A stretch of DNA of 64,000 nt, from positions 3,638 through 67,637 of the forward strand of contig CAZEBW010000004.1 in assembly GCA_964510205.1 (NCBI GenBank), written 5' to 3'. A model generated the notes under the pieces. It worked only from the letters and a program-made list of their open reading frames with translations, had not been told where the DNA came from and ran no database searches. This document shows, piece by piece, positions 11,269 to 56,099 of this stretch; positions within the stretch are counted from its first letter, which is position 1; each line of letters opens with the position of its first letter. This stretch comes from an uncultured Anaerolineae bacterium. GTDB lineage: Bacteria; Chloroflexota; Anaerolineae; VGOG01. Made by a program: the position numbers and the translations under genes.

Positions 11269-11400
11269 GCCTCCCTCCTGCAGAAGCGACGTGTGCTACT
11301 GGCCTAGATTATACTCGTGGTGGGGTAAAAGGCAAGCTCTGGTTGGGGAGAAAAGAAAGAGGCCATCCCGGTGGGTGAGGGGTGGGATGGCCCGGTCAAT

Positions 11401-11430
11401 TTGACAAGATTAGAACATGTGTGCTATAAT
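11401..11430 (+). promoter_or_regulatory. Near-consensus sigma-70 promoter
   Basis: TTGACA (11401-11406), 18-nt spacer ending in TGc, TATAAT (11425-11430). A GAGGAGGGA RBS precedes ATG 11486. Confidence 0.55.
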
Positions 11431-11485
11431 CAATCTCGAAAAACCGTTCTGTTACTTACGCTTCTAATGCAGAGGAGGGAGTGAA

Positions 11486-11725
11486 ATGGGTTTGGATATT
11501 TGGTTCAAGGAAGACATTAGGAACATTCTATTGGGTGTGGAGTTGGCCAATGGGCATCTGGCCAGTCGCTACAGTGATGACGAAGTGCGGGCTTATCGTG
11601 AGGGGTTTAAGGCTGCTCTGGCAGCGACGGCGGTGAGTTTTGGGATCTATCAATTCGGACCGCGGGCGGAAGCGCATCGCATTGGGAGCCAAACTGCGCT
11701 CTCCACAATTGCAGAGCAGCCTTGA
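11486..11725 (+). CDS. Small hypothetical protein (79 aa)
   Basis: ORF with a strong RBS and promoter. No recognisable domain. Convergent with the 3' end of the island operon. Confidence 0.5.
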   Translation: MGLDIWFKEDIRNILLGVELANGHLASRYSDDEVRAYREGFKAALAATAVSFGIYQFGPRAEAHRIGSQTALSTIAEQP

Positions 11726-11840
11726 ACCCGGCTGATTGATTCTTAACCCCGATGCCATTCTCCACTGGGACGCCAGGCATGCTTTGTGCAAGGCGTGTCT
11801 GCTGCTGGTCTCGGTAGAGCGGTTGCGATGCCCCCACTTT

Positions 11841-13340
11841 TCATGGAAGCGGTGGCAGTAGTATCCTATTGATGGTTATGCCCCACTGGTCACTTCTTCG
11901 TTCAAGCCCTTCCATTAGTTGCTGGCATGCTGTGGCCTTGTTCGGCGGATCATGTACATCCTGTTGCCTGTATCCACATAACGCCTCATTCAGGAGCACG
12001 GCCATTTCCTGCACGATTTCTTTGTCCCAAATAGTCTTCATGTCGGCTTCGGTCAGTTTTTTCTTCTTGGTCTTCTTGTGGTTATTCTCACCAGATTCTC
12101 TAAAGAAGTGAGGTGCATGAACCGCTTTTTCCTTATTGACCTGGTAGTAAACTACTGGGGCAAGCTGCAAGACCCCATCTGCTAGTGCGACTTTCTGTTT
12201 GGGGCAACGGCATCTCAGCTCCATGGTCGGGATTACAGCTTGAATTTGGCTGTACAAGGGAAGCTGAAGAATACTTTGACCTTCTTCCAGCACCCTGATT
12301 TCGCGACTGTCTCCGATCACAGCAATCCTGTCGGGTGGGACGGTGAAGGTGAACGCCCTGTATCCAACGAGCACCAGAAGGACAAGCAAGAGTGGCAAGG
12401 CCGTACCCGCGGCAGTCAAGACAACGATGTGCAGTGAACTGCGCACGGAAAGCAGTATGCTCGCCAGCAGCATCAGTAGTACAATGACCACAAAGCCTGC
12501 CAACGCGCTGACAAAGGCGAGCACAGGGCTGGACAGTATTAGGTTGATGGCATCGCGAGCGTATGTGAGCAATGTCTCGAGTTGAATAGCAAGCGATGGT
12601 GGAGATTGCTCCGCCGCTCCGTCCTTCTCCTGCTCTGACGGCCTCATGCCTTGCGGACTGGCGTCTCCAGGTGGAAGGGATTCTTCGTCAATGTCCTCTG
12701 AGTTCATGGCTAGTCGTTCCGTCGTTTGCTCAGGCATACTCTCTTCACCCTCCTCTTGTTTTTGCTTCGCCTCTTGGCCTGACGGCTCCGTTTGTACGGG
12801 ACCAGCTCTTCCACGTCGAAGCGGTCCTCCGCCGGTATCTCCTGAATCCATGGCTACTTGTTGGTCTCGCAGGATCTTCCGGTATCGTGACTCGACTGTG
12901 CGCCTTAGGCGGCGGTCCATGTCCTGCAGCAGTTCCAGGCTGCGTGAACAGGCTTGACTTGCCTTGAGCCATTTGCCTTGGGCCTCGCACACCGTGGCCA
13001 ATCCAAAGAGGGCTACTGCTTGACTATGTTTGTCACTCAGAAAGAAGCGAGTGCTCTCTTGATACTTGTTGGCTGCCTCATCCAAGTGTTCCTGAGCGTG
13101 AAAGATAGCTGCGAGGTGAATAAGGGCTACCCCTTGAGCATATGAGTCATCCAACATGTCCAATTCGAGAGATCCTCTTGCTGATCTAATGCTTTGCTCA
13201 GCTATCGATTGGGCTGCTTTGTACCGGCCAGCTCGTCGCAGTTTGTCGGCCTCCTTGTTGAGCACGGTACCGCGATTAGTTCGTTCTCTTAGTTGGCGTA
13301 TGATCTGGTTGGCTTGTCGGTGGTAAGGATCGGATGTCAT
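11841..13340 (-). CDS. TPR-like N-domain / acidic linker / 2 TM / divergent SPFH (band-7)-like C-domain protein
   Basis: N-terminal helical-repeat region (AAQSIAEQS...LFGLATVCEAQGKWLKA), an E/S/P-rich linker and two hydrophobic helices. The C-terminal pattern (RIAVIG..REIRVLEEGQ...VVYYQV...WGITINRILLPP) is collinear with the SPFH fold. Start set at MTSDPY (ATG 13340). Confidence 0.55.
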   Translation of the reverse strand: MTSDPYHRQANQIIRQLRERTNRGTVLNKEADKLRRAGRYKAAQSIAEQSIRSARGSLELDMLDDSYAQGVALIHLAAIFHAQEHLDEAANKYQESTRFFLSDKHSQAVALFGLATVCEAQGKWLKASQACSRSLELLQDMDRRLRRTVESRYRKILRDQQVAMDSGDTGGGPLRRGRAGPVQTEPSGQEAKQKQEEGEESMPEQTTERLAMNSEDIDEESLPPGDASPQGMRPSEQEKDGAAEQSPPSLAIQLETLLTYARDAINLILSSPVLAFVSALAGFVVIVLLMLLASILLSVRSSLHIVVLTAAGTALPLLLVLLVLVGYRAFTFTVPPDRIAVIGDSREIRVLEEGQSILQLPLYSQIQAVIPTMELRCRCPKQKVALADGVLQLAPVVYYQVNKEKAVHAPHFFRESGENNHKKTKKKKLTEADMKTIWDKEIVQEMAVLLNEALCGYRQQDVHDPPNKATACQQLMEGLERRSDQWGITINRILLPPLP

Positions 13341-13419
13341 TGAAGTCCCCCCATAGAAGGAAAGCCCACCGGGATGCAGGAGAGTTGGGCCGGATAAACT
13401 AAGGTGTTCTGCGATATCG

Positions 13420-14727
13420 CTATGGGCTGCCAGGCGGCAATGCAATCGCTGATCTTATGGATTGCAGAGTGGCCATCACGTCGGAAGGCAGAAGGATCTT
13501 GGTCGCTGGATCGGAGGCCATTTTCTCCAGAGCTTCAATGAAACGCAAGGCTATGAATTGTGGAATCGGGATGTTCTTAGTCTCCATCTGACGGAAGCCT
13601 TCGGTGATGGCTATGATCATTCTAGTTTGAGCTTGTGCTCTGGCAACCTCAATCAGGTTATATACTTCAGCCTGTGCCTCGCCTTCAGTGATGAGGACTT
13701 GCTTGCGACTCTCCGCCATGCGCGCTTCCCAGTCTACTTGCCATTTCTTTTGCATTCCTTCCCTAATTTCCGGAGGCACCTCAATATTCAGCATCTGAAA
13801 GCTTATGATAGTGCCTCCCCAGCCTTCGGCTATCTTTCGCAGGGAATCTCGGACACGCTGCTTGATGTCGCTTTGAGGGAACGTGTTGGGATCCAGTGGG
13901 TCAAAGATATCATCCAAGTAACGTTTGCCAATCTCGTCGCGAAGCAGATTCTTGGCTACTTCGATAGTGGCGATTTCCCAGTCATAGCTATCGTAGGTAG
14001 CTTTGAGGACCGCCTCTCTAGAGAATGGATAGGGCTTCTCTGGGTTCCACACCTTGGCTGGATCCTGCGCGATGCGGAATAGAACGCTATAGTGGATGGT
14101 CACCGGTATGCCATCTTTGGTTGAGGCATTATCTAGCGTTCCTCTCCTGAACCGTTTCCGTGTGACGATGACCTTCCTGATACTTTCAAAAGGCTTGGTG
14201 CGCACTGCACCGGGCCCCTCAATGCGAGTGAATTTCCCCATCCGCTCGAAGACAACGGCTTGCTCGTTGCGTATTACGATCAAATTGGCTACCTTGAAGC
14301 CGGCGAGTGCGCCTTTGGACTTCACCTCGTCCACTTGGCCATCTTCAACGATGATGTAGCTTCCCAGGAATAGCTCTCCGGTGACAAAAGAGAGTAAATA
14401 CCGAAAGCAGTCCCACTGATTGCCGCCCCGGCTGACCAGTATGAGTTGCGAGGCCAGAAACAGGAGACTGCCTGTTAAGAATAGATAGACAGCCAGCCCC
14501 AATACTGCCCCCGTCAGGCCTCTCGTGACGAAGGAGAAGGTCAGAAACACCCCACTTGCAGTGAAGAATATCGCCAGCGCCACGCCCTTGCTCTGGCCCA
14601 TCCTGACAAGACACCCAAGGGAGACCACAGCGAGCCATACTAGGCCCCATTTGGGCTCGTGAACTACAGAGACTAAAATCAGTAGTGGAAGCAGGGCTAC
14701 GGACAACACAAGCAAGATCTTCTTCAT
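13420..14727 (-). CDS. SPFH/band-7 (stomatin/prohibitin-like) membrane protein
   Basis: Four N-terminal TM helices, then VIRNEQAVVFERMGKF...TKDGIPVTIHYSVLFRI...GWGGTIISFQMLNIEVP and a coiled-coil tail. AAGGAGAG RBS precedes ATG 14727. Confidence 0.75.
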   Translation of the reverse strand: MKKILLVLSVALLPLLILVSVVHEPKWGLVWLAVVSLGCLVRMGQSKGVALAIFFTASGVFLTFSFVTRGLTGAVLGLAVYLFLTGSLLFLASQLILVSRGGNQWDCFRYLLSFVTGELFLGSYIIVEDGQVDEVKSKGALAGFKVANLIVIRNEQAVVFERMGKFTRIEGPGAVRTKPFESIRKVIVTRKRFRRGTLDNASTKDGIPVTIHYSVLFRIAQDPAKVWNPEKPYPFSREAVLKATYDSYDWEIATIEVAKNLLRDEIGKRYLDDIFDPLDPNTFPQSDIKQRVRDSLRKIAEGWGGTIISFQMLNIEVPPEIREGMQKKWQVDWEARMAESRKQVLITEGEAQAEVYNLIEVARAQAQTRMIIAITEGFRQMETKNIPIPQFIALRFIEALEKMASDPATKILLPSDVMATLQSIRSAIALPPGSP

Positions 14728-14903
14728 AGCACAAGCTCTCCTTGTTTCTGTCAGCACTCTTAAGGTACGTGAGACTGCCGTCCAGTGCGTTCAACACGAG
14801 CTTATCTGACGGCGCCACAGGTATCACCCAGTTTCCATAGATCGAGGCAAAACCAAAAGGCCGCGGCTCGATATCGAAAACGTTTTGCAATGAGGGTGCT
14901 CAC

Positions 14904-16418
14904 TCAGCTCTGGGCGATCAAAATGGGGGAAGCCCAAGTCAAGTCATCCTTATTACGCATTGCCAGCTCTCGCCGGGCATCCAGCAGTGCCAGTTCAGGG
15001 CTGCCGTGCTGGAGCATAGAACGATAGAACGCCAGTGCCATTTCCTTGGCGCTCACTGCCGGCACTGACCACCTGTAGCCCAAAACAGACGGCACCCCTG
15101 ATTGGATAATTCCATCAGCGATACCCAGGTAGTCATCGTCCAGCAAATCAACCGGGCTGCCGGTACGAGTGCCCTCGCAGCACGTCAGGTGAAACAAACG
15201 GGTGTCAGAATCTTCCAACAGCCATCTCAGCTCATTTCCGGTCATTGGCTTTATATTCCCTGACCGGTTGCTGTCTTCCCAGAAGAACAATCTGCTCTGT
15301 TCCGGAGACCCCTCGTGAAAGACTCCGTGACCAACATAATGCACGATGTGATGCTTACACCCACGGAGCATTTCTTGCACTGCACTGTATGTAGCTGCTT
15401 CGGTTCTGACATGAGTCAAATCCAACCAGTTCAGTGGCGACAGCAAATCCACCAACTCTTCTCCGATTTTGTCAATCAGATCAATGCGTGGCTCAGTGTT
15501 GGACACGAGCAGTAGAACACGCAGGTTCTCGCCTGAACTGGCGAGACGTCGTATGAGTTCAGCAGAGATGGGTTCACGCCTCGTCACTACGCCTCGAATT
15601 TGGCGGACCATTGGATGGAGCAGTGTAAGGTAATCACCAGCCTCATCGGAAAAGATGAACTCCAGTGGCAATCCTGCCAGATCTCGGGTGGATTCAAACA
15701 CGAGGTGCAAGTATTGGTTCATTTGCGTCCTACCGAGTGCTCGGTGATACCCGTTGAGTACCGCAGAGTGCTGTTCGAACAGCAGGCGGTATAGCTCCCG
15801 TCCCACGTCTTTGATCAGAAAGCGGCGGTCTGCTGTGCTCATCATGCGTTCGCTTCCCCAGCGTGCAAAACGTGGAGCGTCGAGGCTTAGTGGATTGACA
15901 GAGGTGTATGTGAAGCGGATGTTGCCACGGCCCCGCACAAGAAGTCGCTGCCCTGGCTCTAGCGAGATTGTAATTTCGCACTCTTGGCTCGGCTCAAAGA
16001 CCGGCAATTGCCATTTCAATGACCTACTGATCACGCTATCCATCACTTTAACCACATCTTCTATCATGGTCTTTGGGAGGTACTCGGCTACAAGTCGCCG
16101 TCCAGTTGCATCAGGTTCCAGGGCGCGCCTCATCGTGTCAGGGGTACCATAGCCGGTGATAATGACAATCGGGAGCCCAGGGAATCGTCGTTTAAGCTCA
16201 GCAGCTAGATCAAGGCCTTCTAGGTTGCCTTCATCTGTCTCGTCCAAGCGCATGTCAAGTAGGGCTGCGTCGAAATGCTCTCGGTCAGACAAATCCAGGG
16301 CTCGCGCAACACTGGCAGCCGTTTTGGTTGCGTAGCCCTCGTCAATCAAGAGTTGTGAAAGGGTCACTCGCCAGTCAAACAAATCATCTACGATAAGCAC
16401 CTGGATTTGTTTAGTCAT
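14904..16418 (-). CDS. Response-regulator receiver fused to CHAT (caspase-like) peptidase domain
   Basis: REC features: VLIVDD...LLDMRLDE...ITGYG...LPK. CHAT features: HIVHYVGHG (His), LFHLTCCEG (Cys), SVLGYRWSV. The ATG overlaps the stop of the upstream kinase by 8 nt. Confidence 0.85.
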   Translation of the reverse strand: MTKQIQVLIVDDLFDWRVTLSQLLIDEGYATKTAASVARALDLSDREHFDAALLDMRLDETDEGNLEGLDLAAELKRRFPGLPIVIITGYGTPDTMRRALEPDATGRRLVAEYLPKTMIEDVVKVMDSVISRSLKWQLPVFEPSQECEITISLEPGQRLLVRGRGNIRFTYTSVNPLSLDAPRFARWGSERMMSTADRRFLIKDVGRELYRLLFEQHSAVLNGYHRALGRTQMNQYLHLVFESTRDLAGLPLEFIFSDEAGDYLTLLHPMVRQIRGVVTRREPISAELIRRLASSGENLRVLLLVSNTEPRIDLIDKIGEELVDLLSPLNWLDLTHVRTEAATYSAVQEMLRGCKHHIVHYVGHGVFHEGSPEQSRLFFWEDSNRSGNIKPMTGNELRWLLEDSDTRLFHLTCCEGTRTGSPVDLLDDDYLGIADGIIQSGVPSVLGYRWSVPAVSAKEMALAFYRSMLQHGSPELALLDARRELAMRNKDDLTWASPILIAQS

Positions 16419-17205
16419 GGCTGCTATCCGTGGGAGTTTCTATGGCTTTGATCACAGGGAGTGTGATCGCTATCGTCGTGCCGTGGCCAATCTCAGTATG
16501 TTTTACACTAATCTCTCCACCAAACCTGGCAAGTATCAAATGCGCTAACCAGAGACCCAGGCCCTTGTTGGTCCCGGTTGACGGAATCGGACCCTGAAAA
16601 AGATCGGCAAGAATGAGTTGCGGTATCCCTGTTCCGTTATCTGCAATCTCTACTCGCACTGTGTTGTCCGCGTCCACGTACTGGGTATGGATGTCAATAT
16701 GTCCGGGTTTTTTGCTTGTTGCTTGGATCGAGTTTTCGAGCACCGCCCGGAAAACCTCCGCGAGCAAGTGGCTATCAGCACGCACGGGAGGGACATCCTC
16801 TGGAAAATCAAAACTCACCCGTACTGTCTTGGAAGTGTGGCTAGCAGAAAGTTCTTCCCAGACCTCATACAGCAGTGAGTTTACGTCTAAGGGCATAGGC
16901 GGCTCACTCGGCTCTCTGAGTACTTCGACGGCGGCACTTAATTCGCTCAAACTGCTAATGGTCTTTTCTATGGCTGTGACCAGGTCGAGGGCGGCTCTAT
17001 CGTTGCTATTGATGTATTCCTTAAGACGACCGACTCGAACTCCCAGCAACCCAGTCAAGTTGGAGAGCTGGTGCAGTAATGCAGCAGAAGCCATCCCCAG
17101 TGCAATGAGGCTGGCCTCCTCCCCGTGGCTACGGTTAGGATGTGCACTTTCTTGCGGTAGGGGTGGATTTGGTCTCTGACTTTCCCGGTCATTTGGTGGA
17201 CTCAT
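16411..17205 (-). CDS. Sensor-less cytoplasmic histidine kinase (DHp + HATPase_c only)
   Basis: H-box-like AALLHQLSNLTG. ATPase N/G boxes VLENSIQAT, IADNGTGIP, GLGLWLAHLI. No TM or sensor domain. Confidence 0.8.
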   Translation of the reverse strand: MSPPNDRESQRPNPPLPQESAHPNRSHGEEASLIALGMASAALLHQLSNLTGLLGVRVGRLKEYINSNDRAALDLVTAIEKTISSLSELSAAVEVLREPSEPPMPLDVNSLLYEVWEELSASHTSKTVRVSFDFPEDVPPVRADSHLLAEVFRAVLENSIQATSKKPGHIDIHTQYVDADNTVRVEIADNGTGIPQLILADLFQGPIPSTGTNKGLGLWLAHLILARFGGEISVKHTEIGHGTTIAITLPVIKAIETPTDSSHD

Positions 17206-17241
17206 TTGTCGGATTCTCCCAAGCGCGGCGCGTCCTTCAGT

Positions 17242-18717
17242 TCACTCCTGATGAATCAAGATAGGCGACAACCAGGTTGGATCGTTTCTGTCCATAGCGG
17301 CCAGCTCGCGCCTTGCGCTCCAGAGGGCGAACTCCGGCCCCCCTTGCTCCAATAAGGACTGGTAGAAAGCCAACGCCAGCCGACGGGCTCCATCATCTGA
17401 CACAGGCCAGCGGAAGCCCAGCACCGAGGGTGCGCCGGCCTGCGCGACAGCGTCGGCCAGCCCAAGGAAATCGTCATCCAGCAAAGCAGCCTGAGCGCCG
17501 CTGGCTGTGCCATAGCAACTGCTCATGTACACCAGACGTGCTTCCGAGCGCCTGAGTAGCATCTTTAGTTCGGTTGCTTTCATCGGCATGACGCCACCTT
17601 GCTTATTCTCCTGGGCCCAGAAGTATAGGCTGCTATCTTCAGGGGACTCGGTCCTGTACGAGCCATGTCCTGCGTAATGTACAATGTCGTAACTGGGCTT
17701 CCCCAACTCTGATCTTACGCGCTCATACGTGGCGCGCTCCGTGGGGATGAGTTTAACACTGACAGGGATGCAGTCCTGGCTCTTTAAGTACTCGTACAGT
17801 GCCTGCGCCTCGGCATCTACGCCGTCTATTGGAGGCTGTGTGTTAGAGGCGATAATCAGAATTCGCAATTCCTGAGTCAGTGCCAGCAGCGAAGGGGAAA
17901 TCAGGCTGCGTTTCGGGGTAGCATTGTATAGAAAACGGGCGAGGGGGTGTTGAAGTACCAGGTACTCTGGAGGATCATCCGAGCGCATAAATTCCAATGG
18001 TAGTCTGAGAAATTCCCTGGGCGTCTCAAAAAGCATTGAAAACGACTGGCTCTTGGCGCGCGCTTCCACATAGGCTTTTTCGGCTTCAGGGTGCTCAGTA
18101 AATATGTCACGCCACAGACTGTGGCCGATCTCCCCAACCTGGAAACGCAAATTGCTCACGTCTCTTCTGGCGAGTTCTGTCCGCCTTGCATAGCGTTCGA
18201 GTGCCACACGCAACACTTTCCACGAGCGCAAGGAACAGACGTGGCGACCGCGCGCCCTGATCACCAGAGGCTGTCCGGCTGTGAGTGATAGAGATAGCTG
18301 GGTAGCATCACCTGTCTTCTCAAACCTCGGCTTGGTTGCCTCCTGGCGTGCTTTCGCGATAGTCTCCAGAACTTGTTCAGCCACATCCGGGGTTTTTTCG
18401 ATGAAGTCAACTACTCCGAGATATCGAATCGCGCGTACAATTTGCTTGGTTCTCGGGTAGCGTGTGAGCAGGATGACGCGAACCCGCGGATTGAGGGCGC
18501 GGAATGCCATCGCCAGGCTCAATCCGCTTTCGTCCTCTTCATCATCTCCGTGCAGGCGCACGTCAATGAGAGCAAAGTCGAACGGTTCTTGCGTGACAGC
18601 AACCAGGGCTTGTTCCTCGTTGGCCGCTGACCGGACGGTGTATCCTTCATCGGAAAGTCGCCCTGCTAACGTGGTACAGAAATCGGCATGGTCATCTACT
18701 ATCAGAATCTTGCACAT
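17242..18717 (-). CDS. Response-regulator receiver fused to CHAT (caspase-like) peptidase domain
   Basis: REC features: ILIVDD...LIDVRLHGDDEEDE...LLTRY...IEK. CHAT features: DIVHYAGHG (His), LVYMSSCYG (Cys), SVLGFRWPV. Start chosen at MCKILIVDD (ATG 18717, GAGGG RBS); upstream in-frame ATGs at 18732 and 18768 are possible. Confidence 0.85.
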   Translation of the reverse strand: MCKILIVDDHADFCTTLAGRLSDEGYTVRSAANEEQALVAVTQEPFDFALIDVRLHGDDEEDESGLSLAMAFRALNPRVRVILLTRYPRTKQIVRAIRYLGVVDFIEKTPDVAEQVLETIAKARQEATKPRFEKTGDATQLSLSLTAGQPLVIRARGRHVCSLRSWKVLRVALERYARRTELARRDVSNLRFQVGEIGHSLWRDIFTEHPEAEKAYVEARAKSQSFSMLFETPREFLRLPLEFMRSDDPPEYLVLQHPLARFLYNATPKRSLISPSLLALTQELRILIIASNTQPPIDGVDAEAQALYEYLKSQDCIPVSVKLIPTERATYERVRSELGKPSYDIVHYAGHGSYRTESPEDSSLYFWAQENKQGGVMPMKATELKMLLRRSEARLVYMSSCYGTASGAQAALLDDDFLGLADAVAQAGAPSVLGFRWPVSDDGARRLALAFYQSLLEQGGPEFALWSARRELAAMDRNDPTWLSPILIHQE

Positions 18718-18757
18718 TGCTACCCTCTTCATCAACTGTCTGATGGGACGCTCCGGG

Positions 18758-19639
18758 TCATCCAGCATTCCCCCAATTTGCCTGTATGTAACTCGTTGTC
18801 GCCTTTACGTCCAGGCTGCGAGTCGAATTGCCAATACGCACCCAGAACTTGTGAACATCGCCCGTCGCCAGGAACACCGGCTTTGGGCTTTTTTCAATCG
18901 CAACGATGCAGACGTGTTTACCATCTATGGGTTCGAAGCGTGTGCGAATGTATGGCATATATTCTAGACCCACATAGGTCTTGACAATATCCGTCAATGC
19001 CAATTGAAACCCATCGGTATTTGGCTTGCGCAGAGTTTGTAAGTCTTTTTCAATACCTAGCACCGTGCCATCGTCAGCGACGCCAATGAGTAGGGTCCCA
19101 CCCTTGCTGTTCAACATTCCTGTGATTGCCACGGCGATCGTTTCCTGCAGGCTCTTGTTAGTTGTGTTTTTCTTGAAATCCCAGCGGATACTGGACTTGA
19201 ATTCCACGTGGTCATTTTCACCTTGGGCAATCAAATTGAGTACCGAGCGTTCAAATGCGCGGTTCACGTACTCCGGCAGTTGGTCTACTTCAGATTTTTC
19301 CAGGAAGCCAAACGCTGGTGATACTCCCTCGCGATCAGGTTGAAGGACCTCCCTCACCATCCTGACGTTTGCATAGCCGGTCAAGATAATGATGGCCACA
19401 TGGGGGTCCTTCTCTCTGATCTCGCGCATAAGCAAGATGCCATCTTGGTTGTCCTCGTCGGCCTCGTCCAAGCGCACGTCCAGAACTGCGACGTGAAAAC
19501 GCTCGGCGTCCAACATTTGCAGAGCCTCAACTCTGCTGGATGCCGAGCGTACTTCATAGCCTTCGTCTGACAAAAGGCCCGACAATGTTGCGCACACGTC
19601 GGGCAGGTCATCTACTACGAGAACGCGACCTTTGTACAT
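18758..19639 (-). CDS. Response-regulator receiver fused to AlbA_2 (Schlafen-like, putative nucleic-acid-binding) domain
   Basis: REC features: VLVVDD...VLDVRLDEADEDN...LTGYA...LEK. C-terminal features: GENDHVEFKSS...MLNSKGGTLLIGVADDGTVLGI, matching the AlbA_2/divergent-AAA pattern. AGGAG RBS precedes ATG 19639. Confidence 0.75.
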   Translation of the reverse strand: MYKGRVLVVDDLPDVCATLSGLLSDEGYEVRSASSRVEALQMLDAERFHVAVLDVRLDEADEDNQDGILLMREIREKDPHVAIIILTGYANVRMVREVLQPDREGVSPAFGFLEKSEVDQLPEYVNRAFERSVLNLIAQGENDHVEFKSSIRWDFKKNTTNKSLQETIAVAITGMLNSKGGTLLIGVADDGTVLGIEKDLQTLRKPNTDGFQLALTDIVKTYVGLEYMPYIRTRFEPIDGKHVCIVAIEKSPKPVFLATGDVHKFWVRIGNSTRSLDVKATTSYIQANWGNAG

Positions 19640-19665
19640 GGCACTCCTGCCGATTGCATCTTGTC

Positions 19666-20067
19666 TTATCGTGCCAACACTTCCTGTACTATCTTGACCA
19701 ACTCTTCGGTCTGGGTTTTCGGGATATAGTTCGCTACAAGTCTCCGGCCCTGCGTATCTGGCTCCATTGCCCGTCTCATGGTATCCGGCGTGCCGTAGCC
19801 TGTGATCATTACGACTTCGGTAGTGGGCCAATGTTGTTTGATCTCATCCGCCAGGTCCAGCCCCTCGGTGTTACTCTCGTCCGTCTCGTCCAGGCGCATG
19901 TCCAGTACTGCCAGATCAAAATGGCTGGTTTTGAGCAACTCCAATGCCGCAGGCGAAGACTCGGCAACCTGGACATCGTATCCCGCGTCCTCCAACAAGC
20001 CACCGAGCGTCGTGCGCCAATCTAGCAGGTCATCTACCACCAGAATCTTCTGCCGTTTGTTTGTCAT
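19666..20067 (-). CDS. Stand-alone response-regulator receiver
   Basis: ILVVDD...VLDMRLDETDESN...ITGYG...IPK. Closest in sequence to the REC of the 14904-16418 protein. Shows an ATGA start/stop overlap with the upstream gene. Confidence 0.9.
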   Translation of the reverse strand: MTNKRQKILVVDDLLDWRTTLGGLLEDAGYDVQVAESSPAALELLKTSHFDLAVLDMRLDETDESNTEGLDLADEIKQHWPTTEVVMITGYGTPDTMRRAMEPDTQGRRLVANYIPKTQTEELVKIVQEVLAR

Positions 20068-20453
20068 TCTCTTACTCCTTCGTGCTTACCATGGCGATTA
20101 CGCGGCACCTGTGGAAACAGAATGATCTCCCTGACCTGCTCGAAGAGATCCTCGCTTCCGAAAGACTTGGCGAAGTAGCGCATGGCTCCCAACCGGTAGG
20201 CCGCAAGCGCCTCTTGGGTCGTGGGTTGTACTGTTGTTACGACCACCCGCTTATCAGAGTATTTCTCAGCGATGACTGCAAGCACGTCCAGGCGGCGGGA
20301 GCTTGCGATGACCAGGTCGAACTGATCCGCTTCGAGTTCAGCGAGTGCTGCCTTGGTGTCAGGCGCAACGACGATTTCAAACTTGTTGAGATCGCTCTTG
20401 GCGAACTCAATCCAGCGAGGTTCGTCGTCAATGATCAGAATGCGAGTTTTCAT
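20064..20453 (-). CDS. Atypical (pseudo-)receiver domain protein; phospho-acceptor Asp replaced by Ser
   Basis: ILIIDDE...FDLVIASSRR...VVVTT...FAKSF. The acidic pair, Thr and Lys are kept, but the D57-equivalent reads S. AGGAGG lies 7 nt upstream of ATG 20453. Confidence 0.7.
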   Translation of the reverse strand: MKTRILIIDDEPRWIEFAKSDLNKFEIVVAPDTKAALAELEADQFDLVIASSRRLDVLAVIAEKYSDKRVVVTTVQPTTQEALAAYRLGAMRYFAKSFGSEDLFEQVREIILFPQVPRNRHGKHEGVRE

Positions 20454-20455
20454 GA

Positions 20456-23400
20456 TCACACCTCCTTTCCCGTCCCCGGCGCTGGGATCTGAACCAGCAT
20501 TGTTGTTCCAGTGGGATCGGTCTCTTCTATTATAGCATCACCGCCAATACTTTGCAACATCAGTCGGCTGAGCCAGAGACCCAGACCTGCCCCTCCGCCT
20601 GGCTCCTTGGATGGGACTGGTTTGACGAAGAGACGTTGCTGGACTTGCAGTGGGATGCCCGGTCCTGTATCCTGAACCCGCACACAGATATTACTGTCGG
20701 TCAGACGACTGGTAACTGCTAACTGGCCACCCGCCTTCATTGCTCGGTAGGCATTGTCAACCAAGTTGTAGAAGACCTCAGCGATCTGACCGATCGGGGC
20801 CCGAATCTGCGGCAGCGATTGATCCAGGTCTAGGGTATGTTCGATCGTTGATCGAATGGGATCCGTTCGCCACTGTTCTCTCACTTTACCCACCACGTCA
20901 CTCAGCACTGCGTTAATGTCCACATCCTGATCCTCGACCTCTCGCAGCGGTTCTTGAATGCGCGCGATGATATCCGACGTATAGCGGGCGTTACGTTCGA
21001 TGATGTCAAGGATCTCTGCAATCGTATCATTCGACATATCAACGCGCTTCCGCAGGCGCGTCACGTTGGGAACGATGATGTTGAAGGTATTATTGACACG
21101 ATGTTGTAAAGCTGCGATGGCCGTGCCCAGTGTGGCCAAGCGCTTGGTCGCGATGACTTCACTGCGTGCCTCCTCATATAACCGGGCATTCTCAAGGGCA
21201 ATGGCTGCCTGGTTGGCCATAGAGGAGATGACCTGCAAGTCCTGTTCATCGTAGGCCTGCTCTCTTTCCCAGTCGTAGATAGCGATCACGCCCAGAACCC
21301 TATTCTCCAGAACCATCGGGACACCTATCCAAGATTTGGCGACACGCCCGATGAACTCTTGATGTCCGGGCTGTCCATACCACGCTTTAGATTCCACTTG
21401 GGTGCGATGCAGGATTGGCTTCTTGGTAAGGATGACTTCTTCGGTCTTACCCCGCTTCTCCATATCAGCCTTGCGGGGATCGTAATGCACCTGCTCACCG
21501 TGCTCCGTTGCCAGACCGAAGCGGATCATCCCTGTTTCCTCGTCATACAGCGCGATGTACATGTCCTGTGCGCCGGTCAACTCCCTGGCCTGCTCGTAGA
21601 TTAGCTCCAGAATCTCATCTTGCTTCAGACGAATACCGGAGGTTAGTGCCTGTCCTACCTCATTCAGTGCCGCCAACGCCTGAACGCGCCGTGCGAGCTG
21701 CTGGTTGATCTCGTAGTAAAGCGTTGCATTATCCAACGCGATTGCCGCTTGGTTGGCCACAGAGGAGATGACCTGCAAGTCCTGTTCATCGTAGGCCTGC
21801 TCTCTTTCCCAGTCATAAATGGCGATCATACCCAGTACCTTCTCACCTGTGACCATGGGAACGCCCAAGTAAGAAGGCTGAACACGCCCGATGAACTCTT
21901 GATGTCCGGGCTGTCCATACCACGCTTTAGATTCCACTTGGGTGCGATGCAGGATTGGCTTCTTGGTAAGGATGACTTCTTCGGTCTTACCCCGCTTCTC
22001 CATATCAGCCTTGCGGGGATCGTAATGCACCTGCTCACCGTGCTCCGTTGCCAGACCGAAGCGGATCATCCCTGTTTCCTCGTCATACAGCGCGATGTAC
22101 ATGTCCTGTGCGCCGGTCAACTCCCTGGCCTGCTCGTAGATTAGCTCCAGAATCTCATCTTGCTTCAGACGAATACCGGAGGTTAGTGTCTGTCCCACCT
22201 CGTTCACTGCCTGTATAGCTTTATACAAGCGTGCGCTTTTAATAGCAACCGCTGCTGCCCCAGCTAGGGCCTCAACCAGACGCATGTGATCGTCTGTAAA
22301 GGCTCCGATTTGGGTACTCTCCAGATTGAGCGTTCCAATCACTCTGTCACGGTGTATCAACGGTGTTGTGAGTTCGGATTGTACTTCCTCAAACCACTCC
22401 TTGTAGTACGGATCGCTTTTGATATCGTTGCAAAGATATGTCTTTCTACTCAAGGCAACGTGTCCGTTGATGCTCGTCTCGTCTAGGGGTAGTCTCGTGA
22501 GGGTTCGCGTCGGCGTCTCATCCCTCTTGTTTCTCGCCCCAAATCGCAGTTCACGTGTCCGCTCGTCCAGCAACCAAATACTCGTATACTTGGCTGGCGT
22601 CAGCCTGGCCGCTTGCTCTGCGATTTGCTCCAGCAGATCCTCTAGGGAAGCAGTGCCAATGAGCGCGTATAGGTTCTGAAGAGCTCTGATATCATCAATT
22701 CGCTCTTGTAGGCTAGTCTGAGCCTCTTCGTACACACGGGCGTTATAGATAGCTGTCGCCGCTTGATTAGCGAACAGCTCGATAGCCCCCCGTTGCTCAG
22801 GAGTGAAGGGTTGTCGGCTCCGGTAATTGACGAACATAGCGCCCACGGTTTCGCCTGCTGCTTCGAGGGGGACGGCGGCTGACGATAGGATTCCCTCGCG
22901 CACTACAAAGCGCTTTTCCGGGCGCTCAGGGCGCTCTACGGTGAATGGGCCGGTGAGCAGGGTATCCGTCTGAGTATCGGGAGAGTAGAGGGGCTCTCCA
23001 CCCTCGACCACTTTCACAACGACATCATCCTTGAATATTTCGTCCTTGACAACTGTGGGGTCTCGGCGCTCTCCTTCCAAGATAGGTGGCATGATGTAAC
23101 GGTCATCCGCCTCAACGTACTGGTACACATCCACGAGATCGGCACCCAATACACTCCTGGCACTTCGCGCCACCTGACGCAATACCTCTCTCAACCCCTG
23201 TGCCGAAAGCTCAGCCGAGAGTATTCGTCCCCCAATCTGGTGCAGCCTCTGCAAGACTGCAGCCCGGCTGGTTGCCTGCTCAAGAAGTTGAGCATTGTGT
23301 ACAGCCACGGCGGACTGGCTGGCCACCGCCTCTAACAGCATCTGATCGTGCTCGTCAAAGCCGCTCAGCCCGTCCATATCAGCAGAGATCACCCCAATAA

Positions 23401-24193
23401 CCTCGTCTTGCAAGATTATGGGCGCCAGCACCATTGAGCGCTCGACGATGTCTGACGACAAACCGGGGACAAACTGAGGGTGCTTGACCGCATCCGGGAC
23501 GAGTTCTGATTGCTTGGTTTGGGCTACCCACCCGGCCAACCCGACCCCTTGGGCGAACTGCTGTCGTGCGATGCCTGCTGACGAGGCAGCTTCCAACGCT
23601 AGGTCACCGCTCTTATCCACTAGAAAAACGCTGATGTGCTTGCAATCCAGCACTCTTTCTGCGGCTTGCATAATGCGTGCGAAAAGATCGGCACGGCGCA
23701 ATTCGGAACTGATCAAGAGGCTCACTGCGTTCAGGGTCGCCAGATCCTGAATTCGACGCTGCGTGGCAGCCACTTGAGCGGAAGAACTCTCAATCAGCGC
23801 CTTCTCGAAATCAGTGAAATCCCTTGCCTCACGGGTATAAACGTCAAGCACACCAACGATTTTCCTTTTTACTCGTAGTGGTACCACCATAGCCGACTTC
23901 AGTCCCATAGCGGTGGTTTCTGGTTTGTACTTCCAGCGAGCATCGGTGTCAACGTCTGTCACGACGATTGCCTGTTCAGTCGCAAAAACGTCAGACGCGA
24001 CACTGGGCTCATCCAGGCGCAGAAACGCATCGCGAACGTATTCCTCTGACAACTCTGTCGCTGCAGCGATCCGGAGGGTTTCCCCCGTTTCATCGGCAAG
24101 CCAGATACAGGCCGGCAGTCCCAGAGTCTGGCTTATGGTCTCCACCACGGGTTGAAAGAACTGCTTTTTATCAAGTTCTTGAGAGGGGATCAT
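20456..24193 (-). CDS. Multi-GAF cytoplasmic histidine kinase (HisKA_2-like H-box + HATPase_c)
   Basis: 1245 aa with about five to six GAF-like modules judged by periodic motifs (e.g. VPL...VIGVL...). The C-terminus has AALQHRVNNTFN (an HRVxN-type H-box) plus LVDNAYRAM, VQDTGPGIP, GLGLWLSRLM. No TM segment. AAGGAGAG RBS. Confidence 0.9.
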   Translation of the reverse strand: MIPSQELDKKQFFQPVVETISQTLGLPACIWLADETGETLRIAAATELSEEYVRDAFLRLDEPSVASDVFATEQAIVVTDVDTDARWKYKPETTAMGLKSAMVVPLRVKRKIVGVLDVYTREARDFTDFEKALIESSSAQVAATQRRIQDLATLNAVSLLISSELRRADLFARIMQAAERVLDCKHISVFLVDKSGDLALEAASSAGIARQQFAQGVGLAGWVAQTKQSELVPDAVKHPQFVPGLSSDIVERSMVLAPIILQDEVIGVISADMDGLSGFDEHDQMLLEAVASQSAVAVHNAQLLEQATSRAAVLQRLHQIGGRILSAELSAQGLREVLRQVARSARSVLGADLVDVYQYVEADDRYIMPPILEGERRDPTVVKDEIFKDDVVVKVVEGGEPLYSPDTQTDTLLTGPFTVERPERPEKRFVVREGILSSAAVPLEAAGETVGAMFVNYRSRQPFTPEQRGAIELFANQAATAIYNARVYEEAQTSLQERIDDIRALQNLYALIGTASLEDLLEQIAEQAARLTPAKYTSIWLLDERTRELRFGARNKRDETPTRTLTRLPLDETSINGHVALSRKTYLCNDIKSDPYYKEWFEEVQSELTTPLIHRDRVIGTLNLESTQIGAFTDDHMRLVEALAGAAAVAIKSARLYKAIQAVNEVGQTLTSGIRLKQDEILELIYEQARELTGAQDMYIALYDEETGMIRFGLATEHGEQVHYDPRKADMEKRGKTEEVILTKKPILHRTQVESKAWYGQPGHQEFIGRVQPSYLGVPMVTGEKVLGMIAIYDWEREQAYDEQDLQVISSVANQAAIALDNATLYYEINQQLARRVQALAALNEVGQALTSGIRLKQDEILELIYEQARELTGAQDMYIALYDEETGMIRFGLATEHGEQVHYDPRKADMEKRGKTEEVILTKKPILHRTQVESKAWYGQPGHQEFIGRVAKSWIGVPMVLENRVLGVIAIYDWEREQAYDEQDLQVISSMANQAAIALENARLYEEARSEVIATKRLATLGTAIAALQHRVNNTFNIIVPNVTRLRKRVDMSNDTIAEILDIIERNARYTSDIIARIQEPLREVEDQDVDINAVLSDVVGKVREQWRTDPIRSTIEHTLDLDQSLPQIRAPIGQIAEVFYNLVDNAYRAMKAGGQLAVTSRLTDSNICVRVQDTGPGIPLQVQQRLFVKPVPSKEPGGGAGLGLWLSRLMLQSIGGDAIIEETDPTGTTMLVQIPAPGTGKEV
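21211..22200. repeat. In-frame 540-bp tandem duplication (one GAF module) inside the kinase gene
   Basis: 21342-21648 is identical to 21882-22188 (307/307 by eye). 21221-21274 is identical to 21761-21814. The roughly 65 bp between the two blocks are strongly diverged. Confidence 0.9.
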
Positions 24194-24228
24194 GGGTCAC
24201 TCTCCTTGTCATCTGTAAATGGGCAGAT

Positions 24229-25569
24229 TCAATTATGAGGTTGGTGTCTCCAGACTTCCAATGACTCCCTATATCCCGCTTCCGAAAATGCTAACCCCTT
24301 CTCCCTCAGCATCATAGCGGTGAGAAGGTGAGGTAATCCTTTCTTCTTTTCCAGGAAGACGATTTGTGGGCCGGAAAGCGTACGCCTACCATTCTTCTTC
24401 AGGAATTGCATGAGCTGGCGACGTCCGCGCTCAACGGTCTTTAAGAAACGCTGTGCCTCGGTTGAGAAATAGGATTCCAGTTTCTCCTCGTCCTCCGGCG
24501 CCGCTCGCGAAGCGTTGCGCACTGTTTGGGAAATGCAATCTATCAGTGTGGGTAGAAACCCCCTGGTTTCGATGCCCAGAACAATCTGCCGCGTTACGAC
24601 ACCTCGAATCAATAGCTTAATGAGACGCTCTCGCCCATTCTTACCTGGAGGTGGAGCGCCATCTGCGACTAGGAAATACAGCGCCTTTAGATAATCTGCC
24701 ATCACATGTTCGCTGGCAGTGATCAACGATTCTGGCAGGTCAGGTGCGCGAACGAGACTATGTATGGTGTCTGTGATCGGTTGGTAACTACTTATCTCAA
24801 ACACTGATTGAGCATCTTGCAGGATCATTGCCACGCGCTCAGTGCCAATCACCGTTTCGAAGAAAGGCTCCGTCATCGGTTGGAGCCTTTGGGTCTTAGT
24901 GTCTATCTCGGTGCTGACAAAGAGTGAATTGGCGAATTCAACGAACCGACCGCACTGGCAAGGCGGCCGACAATCGGGGCCGCAGCCAAAGACCGCGCCT
25001 CGATCAAAGAACATCTCAGTATTGGGCCCGCATTTACGATAGCGAACTACCCCTTCAATGCCATTTCCTTGTTTCCAGAGGTTGTCCTTGACTCCCAGAC
25101 CTATGATCTGCTCTTCAGGCATCCCGATACTCCGCCAAGCTTGATGAGCCTCTACATCCTCGTCAAACGCATGCTTTGAAATCTTACCCCCGGCGAAATA
25201 AGTGACCCATATGTTGTCTGGCTTGATTCTCAGGTTTGAGGTCATGAACTCCCACATTTGCTGGATAACAGTTGCCTTGCTGAGAGCATTAAAGGAAAAA
25301 GCGGCGGGCATTTCAAACAAGCTTAGGTGCACATTGTCGGTTCCAACGGTGTCAATGTCGAAATATCTGAAGCACTTTTGCACCAGTGCATACTTATGCC
25401 CGGCACGCTTGCCCATCTGATCAAGAGCCTTTTCAAATTGCGGTAATCCAGCACTCATTACGAACGACATAGGAATAGAGGGATGCAACAGCGAGGCACT
25501 AGGCAGAACGGAGAATCCTTTGCCCTGGTAATAATCGAGGAACGTTTGGCTAATGGCTGGGGATCGCAT
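24229..25569 (-). CDS. Alanyl-tRNA synthetase catalytic-core paralog (aminoacylation + tRNA-recognition domains only; no editing or C-Ala domains)
   Basis: 446 aa, collinear with roughly the first 450 residues of bacterial AlaRS. Matching blocks: FLDYYQGKGF, VMSAGLPQF (vs FTNAGMNQF), QKCFRYFDIDTVG (vs QRCVR..NDLENVG), LFEMPAAFSF (vs FFEMLGNFSF), KCGPNTEMFFD (vs GPCGPCTEIFYD), ETVIGTERV (vs DTGMGLERI), YFLVADGAPPPGKNGRE (vs AFLIADGVMPSNENRGY). Confidence 0.8.
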   Translation of the reverse strand: MRSPAISQTFLDYYQGKGFSVLPSASLLHPSIPMSFVMSAGLPQFEKALDQMGKRAGHKYALVQKCFRYFDIDTVGTDNVHLSLFEMPAAFSFNALSKATVIQQMWEFMTSNLRIKPDNIWVTYFAGGKISKHAFDEDVEAHQAWRSIGMPEEQIIGLGVKDNLWKQGNGIEGVVRYRKCGPNTEMFFDRGAVFGCGPDCRPPCQCGRFVEFANSLFVSTEIDTKTQRLQPMTEPFFETVIGTERVAMILQDAQSVFEISSYQPITDTIHSLVRAPDLPESLITASEHVMADYLKALYFLVADGAPPPGKNGRERLIKLLIRGVVTRQIVLGIETRGFLPTLIDCISQTVRNASRAAPEDEEKLESYFSTEAQRFLKTVERGRRQLMQFLKKNGRRTLSGPQIVFLEKKKGLPHLLTAMMLREKGLAFSEAGYRESLEVWRHQPHN

Positions 25570-25621
25570 TTTCTAGCTCCAAATCACGCGATACACCGAA
25601 CGTTATTGTAGATGCATGAAT

Positions 25622-25650
25622 ATTATATCAAACCTGTCCTTAAATGTCAA
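25622..25650 (-). promoter_or_regulatory. Perfect consensus sigma-70 promoter for the island operon
   Basis: The minus strand reads TTGACA (25650-25645), an exact 17-nt spacer, then TATAAT (25627-25622), set in an AT-rich gap. About 50 nt of 5'UTR with a GGAG RBS precedes ATG 25569. Confidence 0.65.
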
Positions 25651-25704
25651 GGCATCCAAAATACTGGATAGACATACACCGTATCGTTCAAGGAGTTGGG
25701 GTAA

Positions 25705-26070
25705 TCACACATTCGGGTGATGGCACTTCTTCCCAGTCGAAAATATCTCTAGCGAAGGGGCATCATATCGAGGCCCTCCTTCGAAGTCCCTAACGAACCG
25801 GTAAAACTCGTCAATGAAGCTGACTAATTCATCAGTATGCTCACTGATCGCCTTGACATCAGGGGAGATGTTCTCCTTGAGTTCCCTCTTGAACTTTTCA
25901 TCCTTCTCCTCAAGAGCAGCCCAATCCCAAGCCCCGTCAAGGTACTTGCGAATCTCCCCTAGCACATGATCTCGTGCGAGTGTGAGATCAGATGGGCAAT
26001 CTTTTGCCTTTAATCTACGATAATCTAATTCCATTTCCCTGCAAAGGGCTGGCGCATGGTCTCTGTCCAT
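25705..26070 (-). CDS. Hypothetical protein; possibly the C-terminal part of a frameshifted lipoprotein gene
   Basis: 121-aa ORF. Its frame is open upstream to 26124 and it overlaps the 26025-26249 ORF. Confidence 0.4.
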   Translation of the reverse strand: MDRDHAPALCREMELDYRRLKAKDCPSDLTLARDHVLGEIRKYLDGAWDWAALEEKDEKFKRELKENISPDVKAISEHTDELVSFIDEFYRFVRDFEGGPRYDAPSLEIFSTGKKCHHPNV

Positions 26071-38821: not shown

Positions 38822-38893
38822 GACGTCATGTGATGAAGCCGCCGCGACGTCATATGATGAAGCGGCCTCGACGTCATATGATTAAGCGGCCTC
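38822..38893. repeat. 24-bp tandem repeat, 3 copies
   Basis: gacgtcatgtgatgaagccgccgc / gacgtcatatgatgaagcggcctc / gacgtcatatgatTaagcggcctc. The third copy carries the stop codon of the GT-C ORF. Confidence 0.9.
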
Positions 38894-40990: not shown

Positions 40991-41024
40991 TGACTTAGGA
41001 CCTCGGACTTAGGACCTAGGACTA
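40951..41024. repeat. Inverted heptamer arrays GTCCTAC(G) / GGACCTA spanning a gene junction
   Basis: gtcctacgtcccacgtcctacgtctcacgtcc and ggacctcggacttaggacctaggac. These encode the N-terminus of paralog 1 and the C-terminus of paralog 2. Confidence 0.75.
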
Positions 41025-43332: not shown

Positions 43333-43418
43333 AGTCCATAGTCCTAGGTCCGATGGAAGGCGGCCTCGGACCTAGCGCGATTTCACAAAACAGGCATTGA
43401 TTCTTGAGACAGCGTCCG

Positions 43419-43530
43419 CCAGGGGCTCCGCTGCGCTCAAGCCCCTGGCTCAGTCTACAAAGCCCCCGCTGGGGCTGGGGTCGTCAGGCCGCAGGCCTTT
43501 GTACCTGAGCCCGGCGGCTTCAGCCCCGGG
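43419..43530. repeat. Intergenic nested-hairpin element
   Basis: gccagggg...cccctggc, and ctcagtctacaaagcc...ggcctttgtacctgag enclosing gcccc/ggggc stems. Confidence 0.4.
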
Positions 43531-43583
43531 CGGAGTGGCGGCGGAGTCAACCTTTGTTGTGTGATGCAGTGCTAGGCTTGGAT

Positions 43584-49234: not shown

Positions 49235-49276
49235 CTCCGAGGTAATGCGTTTCTCCCGCTATTCTTGTGCCTGCTC

Positions 49277-51981: not shown

Positions 51982-51995
51982 ATCAGATCAATCTC

Positions 51996-53678: not shown

Positions 53679-53848
53679 ATCTTACCTCAGTGGACGGATT
53701 ATAGACGAAAGCGTGGGTAAAGTCAATGCAGGCCAAACAGCATTTTCCCCCTCGTTGTAGAGGGGGATGACGATAGATCCGTCTGCTTTCACCTCTGCGA
53801 CCCTCCCGCAGACTCTGAGCCTGCGGGAGGGTGTTATTGGCTGTCGGT

Positions 53849-56074: not shown

Positions 56075-56099
56075 CTTTCCTTCCATTCGCTTCTCTTGC

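Follow-up and report, generated by a model that had tools for sequence, protein, structure and literature searches.

An alanyl-tRNA synthetase catalytic-core paralog coupled to a GAF histidine kinase in Chloroflexota: a candidate sensor for an effector two-component system

The 64,000-nucleotide stretch of DNA considered here ('the window') comes from contig CAZEBW010000004.1 (positions 3,638 to 67,637, forward strand) of assembly GCA_964510205.1, from an uncultured Anaerolineae bacterium. On its minus strand, at exactly 24229..25569, an intact open reading frame (ORF) running from ATG to stop specifies a 446-amino acid (aa) paralog of the catalytic core of alanyl-tRNA synthetase (AlaRS), with a class II aminoacylation domain (~1-245) followed by a helical tRNA-recognition domain (~246-446), as assigned with Pfam, NCBIfam, the PDB, AlphaFold2 (AF2) and Foldseek. 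On sequence comparison it is best explained as functional and as belonging to a monophyletic, so far uncharacterised family of AlaRS catalytic fragments in Chloroflexota/Anaerolineae. What is part of a synthetase doing beside a histidine kinase? Most likely the paralog passes a signal that derives from tRNA or a metabolite to a bacterial switch for immunity or cell death, and moderately favoured is the more specific reading that it would serve the cytoplasmic multi-GAF kinase next to it as input (sensor) subunit, in an architecture resembling that of Detocs and with logic resembling that of GCN2.

The relationship to AlaRS is evident from several directions. Pfam tRNA-synt_2c aligns to the protein along positions 2-426 of its 552-position profile (E = 5e-70), and solved AlaRS catalytic fragments (9jdn, 3hxz, 1riq and 5knn) match the whole of it at E = 1e-37 to 1e-49 (1e-42 to 1e-49 for the first three). 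An AF2 model computed from 79 family sequences has a mean pLDDT of 90.2 and a pTM of 0.89, and its top Foldseek matches in the PDB are AlaRS catalytic fragments with TM 0.76-0.78; the structure prediction that had been proposed in an initial annotation, made from the letters of this DNA, thus returned the fold of an AlaRS fragment. That annotation had also taken the product to be collinear with the aminoacylation and tRNA-recognition domains of AlaRS, with which both the Pfam match and a tblastn search using full-length E. coli AlaRS agree, the latter matching solely residues 5-425 in the window. The editing domain and C-Ala, which it had reported missing, have left no remnant detectable by similarity search with E. 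coli AlaRS in the window or in ~90 homologous loci, and at 446 aa the protein falls well outside the canonical layout of four domains (aminoacylation, tRNA recognition, editing, and the C-Ala domain; ~870-880 aa). Against the NCBIfam alaS equivalog model TIGR00344 it scores 224.3 bits, under the cutoff of 457.05. Could it be a piece of a frameshifted full-length gene, as the annotation had conceded? The ORF is intact, the same length of ~446 aa recurs across the family, and there is no editing remnant. By comparison with the family, with the alaS model and with the window and homologous loci, it is neither a gene fragment nor the housekeeping alaS, and its description as a stand-alone, divergent AlaRS-core paralog is upheld by the score and by the length kept in its relatives.

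Those relatives are numerous. A word-indexed search found 609 of them at E <= 1e-10, and the best 120 of the 609, at 49-100% identity, nearly all measure 440-450 aa. In an exhaustive search of representatives, family members score above ~220 bits and the canonical ~880-aa enzymes start at ~220-200 bits, with 31-34% identity. A neighbour-joining tree was built from 133 near-full-length sequences, 51 of the class with Glu at position 236 (E236, E. coli numbering) and 82 canonical AlaRS; one clade holds 51 of the 51 family sequences, with no canonical member inside. The comparison with AlaRS by alignment and phylogeny that had been envisaged at the outset accordingly gave a separate clade with its own fixed residue signature. 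Named relatives come from Anaerolineales, Candidatus Promineifilaceae and metagenome-assembled genomes labelled 'Anaerolineae bacterium'. The Lon protease encoded in the window has its nearest matches among Chloroflexota/Anaerolineae proteins. A search for the family on plasmids or phages gave canonical alaS alone, at no more than 31% identity. The 150-kb linear plasmid of Streptomyces sp. NBC_01387 (locus L100) has a full-length second alaS at 81411-84065, unrelated to the family and adjoining LOG-family, phosphoribosyltransferase and HAD genes; it is probably a self-resistance copy within a nucleoside natural-product cluster.

The family has its own eccentrics. In four loci (L090, L091, L093 and L095) and in proteins P0121-P0123, two tandem AlaRS-cores occupy one polypeptide of ~920 aa, with the ATP-site residues and the Glu/Val/Leu pocket described below kept in both copies and a short kinase with two GAF domains next to it or fused, which hints that the module acts as a pair. 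A small side-branch (P0235, of 976 aa, P0174 and P0247) combines E236 with A238 and V215, and one of its members carries ~590 C-terminal residues without a Pfam match. In locus L092 an ISAZ013-type DDE transposase (11396-12655) lies between two AlaRS-core genes, beside a protein with a receiver (REC) and eight GAF domains, so that this family locus is disrupted by a mobile element.

Residue states were read from 150 representatives aligned to E. coli AlaRS, with numbering from Met1. Kept in both the family and canonical enzymes are R70, D77, H87, F91, M93, W171, E184, E210, N213, G240, E242 and R243. The class II ATP site is represented in the window's protein by R68 (motif 2), F85 (adenine-stacking) and R245 (motif 3), all invariant or near-invariant in the family; its N214 is retained and its E238 is invariant across 79 sequences. 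In a co-crystal of Methylomonas AlaRS with ATP and alanine, the alpha-phosphate is held, and the adenine sandwiched, by the residues that correspond to R70, F91 and R243 (PMC12143591). The part of the site that faces the amino acid is another matter. At positions where both the canonical and the family state are near-invariant, canonical N96 has become Ala, W212 Ala, Ser or Leu, V215 Leu, and D-T-G at 236-238 E-T-V, and M239I is likewise near-invariant in the paralogs. The alanine pocket is Glu/Val/Leu, in place of D236, G238 and V215, in the window's protein and in ~44 of the 51 family representatives, and is D/G/V in 82 of 82 canonical ones. D236 and R70 are the contacts for the amino and carboxyl groups of alanine (PMC10123102); in the Methylomonas enzyme the V215 equivalent contacts the alanine methyl, and V204L lowers the efficiency with alanine and impedes serine (PMC12143591).

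The initial annotation had seen both sides of this, the arginines of motifs 2 and 3 kept and the amino-acid pocket altered, and the states in the family alignment bear it out; with D236, G238 and V215 all replaced, the site is not the fully canonical one that would have marked a split housekeeping enzyme. The motifs on which it had drawn (QKCFR, ETVIGTER, EFANSLF, VMSAGL, PAAFSFNAL and VADGAPPPGKNGRERLIKLLIRG) are all present and align to the E. coli blocks with which they had been paired. Three further traits turned out not to set the family apart. The four-Cys knuckle GCGxxCxPxCxC (C196, C200, C204 and C206; window 24952-24984, minus strand), considered as a metal or redox site specific to the paralog, is shared by 74-78 of the 82 canonical enzymes, with E. 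coli AlaRS, which is without it, the exception; it thus goes back to ancestral AlaRS, is probably a metal site and is no novelty of the paralog. A gap of four residues after the motif-2 Arg (E. coli 'AGGK'), considered as loss of a contact to the tRNA 3' end, occurs also in the canonical AlaRS of loci L003 and L005. Met at the position of Methylomonas L219, a substitution that abolishes activation of serine and lactate, is not a family trait, most members having Leu.

The tRNA-recognition domain had been called well preserved. That holds for its fold, and not for what it presents to RNA: the residues that read the G3:U70 pair, N303 (in 78 of 82 canonical representatives) and D400 (in 71 of 82), are Lys or Arg in nearly all family members, and Y308 has become Arg, with both the old and the new states near-invariant. 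The mean net charge of the domain is +3.6 in the family vs -6.0 in canonical AlaRS, a shift of about ten positive charges that would be expected if RNA binding had to strengthen after the loss of C-Ala. Invariant family residues in this second domain lie in the loop ADGAPPPGKNGRERIIKLLIRG and around LEKxxGLP. The charge shift and these invariant, remodelled RNA-facing loops are consistent with tRNA binding by the family. In sum, as far as aligned residues can tell, the nucleotide site is conserved, and the amino-acid pocket and the G3:U70 readers are re-cut into a new, equally constrained state.

What the paralog works with is indicated by its neighbour. In the window its gene is preceded by a sigma-70-type consensus promoter, TTGACA-17-TATAAT with a TG extension (25622..25650, minus strand; 12 of 12 hexamer matches), ~50 nt 5' of the ATG, and by a GGAG ribosome-binding site 8-9 nt before the ATG; with a promoter and ribosome-binding site of its own, it is plausibly the first gene of the operon. 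Only 35 nt past its stop codon, with an AAGGAG ribosome-binding site inside the gap, is the ATG of a cytoplasmic histidine kinase of 1245 aa (20456..24193, minus strand) with six GAF domains, an HRVNN-type H-box and HATPase_c, called by Pfam and having homologs directly downstream of the paralog in related loci. The promoter, ribosome-binding sites and domain calls bear out the proposal that the paralog heads a signalling operon 35 nt from a GAF kinase. The kinase has no membrane segment and a GAF domain stands right at its N-terminus, which fits an intracellular signal.

This neighbourhood is the rule. At least 1 kb of downstream sequence is available for 63 related loci. In 56 of them tblastn places the start of a GAF-kinase homolog within 800 bp downstream on the same strand, and Pfam adds three more (L049, L066 and, after one inserted gene, L047), so that at least 59 of the 63 have a GAF kinase either as direct neighbour or one gene further on. 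The seven tblastn exceptions include a GAF protein that tblastn missed, a PAS-PAS-GAF kinase and, past one inserted gene, a dCache-HAMP-GAF kinase; the others are two second copies of tandem paralogs at contig ends, one insertion-sequence insertion and one truncated gene. In some diverged lineages even the short intergenic gap is dispensed with. P0126 and P0128 are fusions of an AlaRS-core to five GAF domains and HATPase_c, P0122 and P0123 of two AlaRS-cores to two GAF domains and HATPase_c, and the tandem double-core ORFs of ~920 aa followed by short GAF kinases also occur. Within each fusion pair the two proteins align collinearly through the junction, at 59% and 43% identity, which makes these conserved fusions and not frameshift or sequencing artefacts. 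With adjacency and fusion both conserved, the paralog works together with the kinase, and its N-terminal place in the fusions, together with the want of any other obvious input on a cytoplasmic kinase, makes it likely the input module. The fusion linker is rich in Pro and Ser and, by its composition, looks flexible and not like a signalling helix.

Set beside canonical AlaS (TIGR00344; 3HXU, 1RIQ and 9JC7), then, the family has the same fold and domain order over the first ~440 residues (TM 0.77), and the same motif-2 Arg, adenine-stacking Phe, motif-3 Arg, E210, N213, W171 and four-Cys knuckle. It differs in being without an editing domain or C-Ala, in its replaced pocket, its changed G3:U70 readers and its net positive tRNA domain, in scoring under the equivalog cutoff, in forming a separate clade and in having a histidine kinase for a partner in at least 59 of 63 loci.

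The kinase named in the initial annotation as partner is confirmed, and the operon is larger than had been envisaged, being an effector two-component system with REC-CHAT, REC-Schlafen/AlbA_2 and other proteins. Downstream of the kinase in 30 loci, 103 ORFs were surveyed and 74 have a receiver domain. The domains fused to or neighbouring the receivers are CHAT (12), SLFN_AlbA_2 (nine), TCAD9 with APH kinase (four), TIR (three), EAD11 and caspase (two each) and, once each, PNP, trypsin-like protease, HD-CE, calcineurin-like phosphoesterase and nucleoside deoxyribosyltransferase. Usually the paralog and then the kinase are followed, in this order, by a REC of ~118 aa, a REC of ~135 aa, a REC-effector of ~300 or 530 aa and a REC-CHAT of ~500 aa, and the gene order of the window recurs in loci L012, L015, L018 and L019. 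By their domain content these effectors speak the vocabulary of prokaryotic conflict and cell-death systems.

How might such a device operate? The paralog would keep the class II mode of binding an adenine nucleotide and would carry a reshaped pocket for a small ligand and an RNA-binding face that is more basic; it would bind a tRNA acceptor end (charged, uncharged or damaged) or a related ligand, and its occupancy would alter autophosphorylation of the kinase. Phosphate would then move on to the stand-alone receiver 'buffers' and the receiver-fused effectors, and these, two CHAT proteases and a Schlafen/AlbA_2 protein here and TIR, caspase, TCAD9-APH kinase and PNP proteins elsewhere, would carry out growth arrest or cell death. 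Of the three roles offered in the initial annotation (sensor of tRNA(Ala) charging or of alanine, enzyme of changed substrate, and decoy or guard), it is the sensor that fits best, given the conserved kinase fusions. That tRNA state in particular is the signal is a tentative proposition: the paralog would then be part of a bacterial counterpart of GCN2, reading uncharged, cleaved or foreign acceptor ends and switching on the kinase and its CHAT/TIR/Schlafen-like effectors.

For the sensing of tRNA state by a synthetase-derived module the obvious precedent is GCN2, the eukaryotic kinase of eIF2-alpha whose regulatory domain is HisRS-like. There as here such a module is physically coupled to a protein kinase, in the family by operon organisation (at least 59 of 63 loci) and, for several lineages, by fusion (P0126/P0128 and P0122/P0123). 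The differences are that GCN2 is HisRS-like, a Ser/Thr kinase and a controller of translation initiation, whereas the family is AlaRS-like, works beside a histidine kinase whose outputs are receiver-fused proteases and other effectors, and has a synthetase-like domain that retains its ATP-binding residues. For the output half of the operon the closest likeness is Detocs, an abortive-infection system composed of the kinase DtcA, the receiver-only buffer DtcB and the receiver-PNP effector DtcC (bioRxiv 10.1101/2023.01.24.525353). Shared with it, the family's side of the comparison being its genes, are the progression from sensor kinase to stand-alone receiver or receivers to receiver-fused killers, and the swapping of effectors, with a PNP effector in one related locus; the window has this layout as kinase, REC, REC, REC-AlbA_2 and two REC-CHAT proteins, and it is the same in ~30 loci. 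DtcA has TPRs, whereas the family's kinase has GAF arrays and an extra, AlaRS-like subunit, and here the bare receivers number two, one of them having no acceptor Asp, and there are several effectors per operon, mostly CHAT and Schlafen-AlbA_2.

Several points speak against the sensor reading, or against parts of it. Linkage and fusion give functional coupling and do not give its direction. The HisRS-like domain of GCN2 is catalytically degenerate, unlike the kept ATP site of the family, and with a full ATP/adenylate apparatus and a tightly conserved pocket the paralog looks more like an active enzyme than like a module for binding alone. The flexible Pro/Ser-rich linker suits an enzyme co-localised with a GAF receptor as well as it suits allostery. 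As to defence, none of the PADLOC defence models matches the paralog or the kinase, with weak domain-level matches to REC and CHAT, in a release that may not contain Detocs models, and the flanks of the window are envelope-glycosylation genes and not a defence island. As to tRNA, ARAGORN and Rfam found no tRNA gene or known RNA family in the window, and ARAGORN no tRNA gene in six related loci. Nor is loss of the Asn/Asp pair by itself proof of changed tRNA(Ala) recognition, since the mini-AlaRS of Tupanvirus is without the pair and yet reads G3:U70 (PMC10036535). In other respects that viral enzyme differs, being an active, alanine-specific synthetase close to the enzyme of its host, in contrast to the family with its re-cut pocket and signalling context (PMC10036535).

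Enzyme or receptor? The main rival to the sensor model, which we hold to be possible and rather unlikely, makes the paralog an active adenylate-former with a new acid or amino-acid substrate, its product being read by the GAF domains of the kinase. That product would be an acyl- or aminoacyl-adenylate, an ApnA-type dinucleotide or an aminoacyl-nucleotide, and a metabolite level would be turned into a nucleotide second messenger. Aminoacyl-tRNA synthetases do make Ap4A; every class II ATP-contact residue is kept here, the remodelled pocket is near-invariant, the partner carries a classic receptor fold for small molecules and nucleotides in its GAF domains, and a flexible linker fits an enzyme tethered to its receptor. 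Such an enzyme would, however, leave unexplained the kept tRNA-recognition domain, its invariant RNA-facing loops and its ten or so extra positive charges, and multi-GAF kinases without any such partner are common.

Less probable again is that the paralog resembles AcmF, the truncated AlaRS-like protein of ascamycin biosynthesis that acts as an aminoacyl-tRNA-dependent transferase and for which Glu232 is essential (PMC12945691; ACS Catal 2024 as cited there). The family member would then transfer an aminoacyl group from an aminoacyl-tRNA to a nucleotide, a small molecule or a protein, possibly the kinase or a receiver. The two have in common truncation to two domains, Asp-to-Glu replacement at the residue for the alpha-amino group and the loss of the Asn/Asp architecture that reads G3:U70. 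AcmF is described as being without most of its ATP-binding residues and as having N219Q, whereas the family keeps both the ATP residues and the Asn, and AcmF belongs to a nucleoside-antibiotic gene cluster, whereas the family is in, or fused to, genes of two-component signalling.

The initial annotation had also entertained a decoy or guard, a paralog that mimics host AlaRS or holds tRNA(Ala) so that phage attack on either would trip the kinase. It is the role that fits worst, and we regard it as improbable. The CHAT, TIR, caspase, PNP and Schlafen-like effectors are indeed typical of immune and abortive-infection systems, and tRNA is a frequent battleground of phage-host conflict. A decoy should, though, preserve the surfaces that are targeted, and this one is merely ~29-33% identical to canonical AlaRS and has its functional surfaces, the active-site and tRNA-facing residues, fixed in a non-canonical state, quite apart from the missing defence-island context and PADLOC match. 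Least credible of all is a housekeeping mini-AlaRS or a frameshifted alaS remnant, for although AlaRS catalytic fragments are able to charge tRNA(Ala), the equivalog score is about half its cutoff, D236, G238 and V215 are all replaced in a pocket where V204L alone cuts the efficiency of the Methylomonas enzyme with alanine, the length and the kinase neighbour recur in dozens of loci with no editing-domain remnant at any, and the ORF is intact with its own promoter, ribosome-binding site and stop codon.

To return to the window, the ten co-directional genes from the paralog to a TPR protein form one block, all on the minus strand. Within the kinase gene, at 21186-22181, one GAF unit of ~180 aa is present as an in-frame tandem duplicate of 540 bp, in which 21342-21641 is identical to 21882-22181 (100% over 300 nt) and the flanking 149 nt are at 79%; the duplication is either very recent or an assembly artefact. 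Homologs of the kinase range from ~600 to 1900 aa, so GAF arrays apparently expand and contract. Next come the stand-alone receivers, identified by Pfam and residue reading. REC1 (20064..20459; 131 aa) is without the phospho-acceptor Asp, having FDLVIASS where the other five receivers carry it in LDMRL or LDVRL, and from this motif may be a pseudo-receiver or adaptor instead of a phosphate sink. REC2 (19666..20067; 133 aa) keeps the Asp and, by its likeness to DtcB, is a candidate phosphate 'buffer'. The REC-Schlafen/AlbA_2 protein (18758..19831; Pfam and homologs) probably has its true start at an internal Met near 19642, giving ~294 aa as in its homologs.

Two REC-CHAT effectors, caspase-like proteases by Pfam and residue reading, retain their His and Cys, the first (17242..18768) in HYAGHG and SSCYG and the second (14904..16418) in HYVGHG and TCCEG. 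Between them, at 16411..17205, is a small, sensor-less histidine-kinase-like protein of 264 aa with H-box and HATPase_c, likewise assigned by Pfam and residue reading. A membrane SPFH/Band_7 protein (13420..14757; Pfam) follows, and SPFH genes accompany the module also in L012, L001 and other loci; the last gene of the block (11841..13445; Pfam) is for the TPR protein, which has a C-terminal membrane/SPFH-like region. The G+C content of the operon block (window 12000-26000) is 0.50-0.55 vs ~0.58-0.64 in the flanks, which suggests horizontal acquisition or distinct codon usage. Upstream of the paralog, an ORF of 121 aa (25705..26070) was considered as part of the system and set aside, with no match in Pfam, NCBIfam or PADLOC and no homolog in the other loci. 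Further away, and unrelated to the AlaRS-core operon, 38882-57305 is a large envelope-glycosylation cluster: four successive large PMT_2-type membrane glycosyltransferases of 702-1103 aa (38882-49234, minus strand) and then an LPG_synthase_TM protein, two type I phosphodiesterases, an LVIVD-repeat protein and a GT4 glycosyltransferase (49277-57305, minus strand).

How new is all this? Re-use of the translation machinery is textbook matter, with HisZ, EpmA, GluQRS, AcmF and the HisRS-like domain of GCN2 as its exemplars; to our knowledge no AlaRS catalytic-core paralog has yet been tied to signalling. Full-text literature searches, Aravind-group papers on conflict systems included, found no description of one linked to a histidine kinase; one orthocaspase that carries an 'alaS-like' domain is listed, with no detail given, in a cyanobacterial review. 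The components, an aminoacyl-tRNA synthetase paralog and a two-component system with receiver-fused effectors, are of known kinds, and it is their combination, and the family, that appear to be undescribed.

The family is large and well conserved. Its one constant companion, at times part of the same polypeptide, is a histidine kinase, and on the output side are the protease, TIR and nuclease-type domains by which prokaryotic systems of immunity and cell death are defined. Both leading mechanisms, sensor and messenger-making enzyme, are directly testable on soluble proteins. If the paralog is an enzyme, it would point to a new acyl- or aminoacyl-nucleotide signal read by GAF domains. If tRNA state is what is sensed, translation status would be linked, directly and testably, to a bacterial switch for death or immunity, two-component systems would gain a new class of intracellular sensor, and GCN2 would have a prokaryotic parallel; filamentous Chloroflexota would then have a tRNA-surveillance pathway of immunity or programmed death in which a synthetase fold serves as the pattern-recognition domain.

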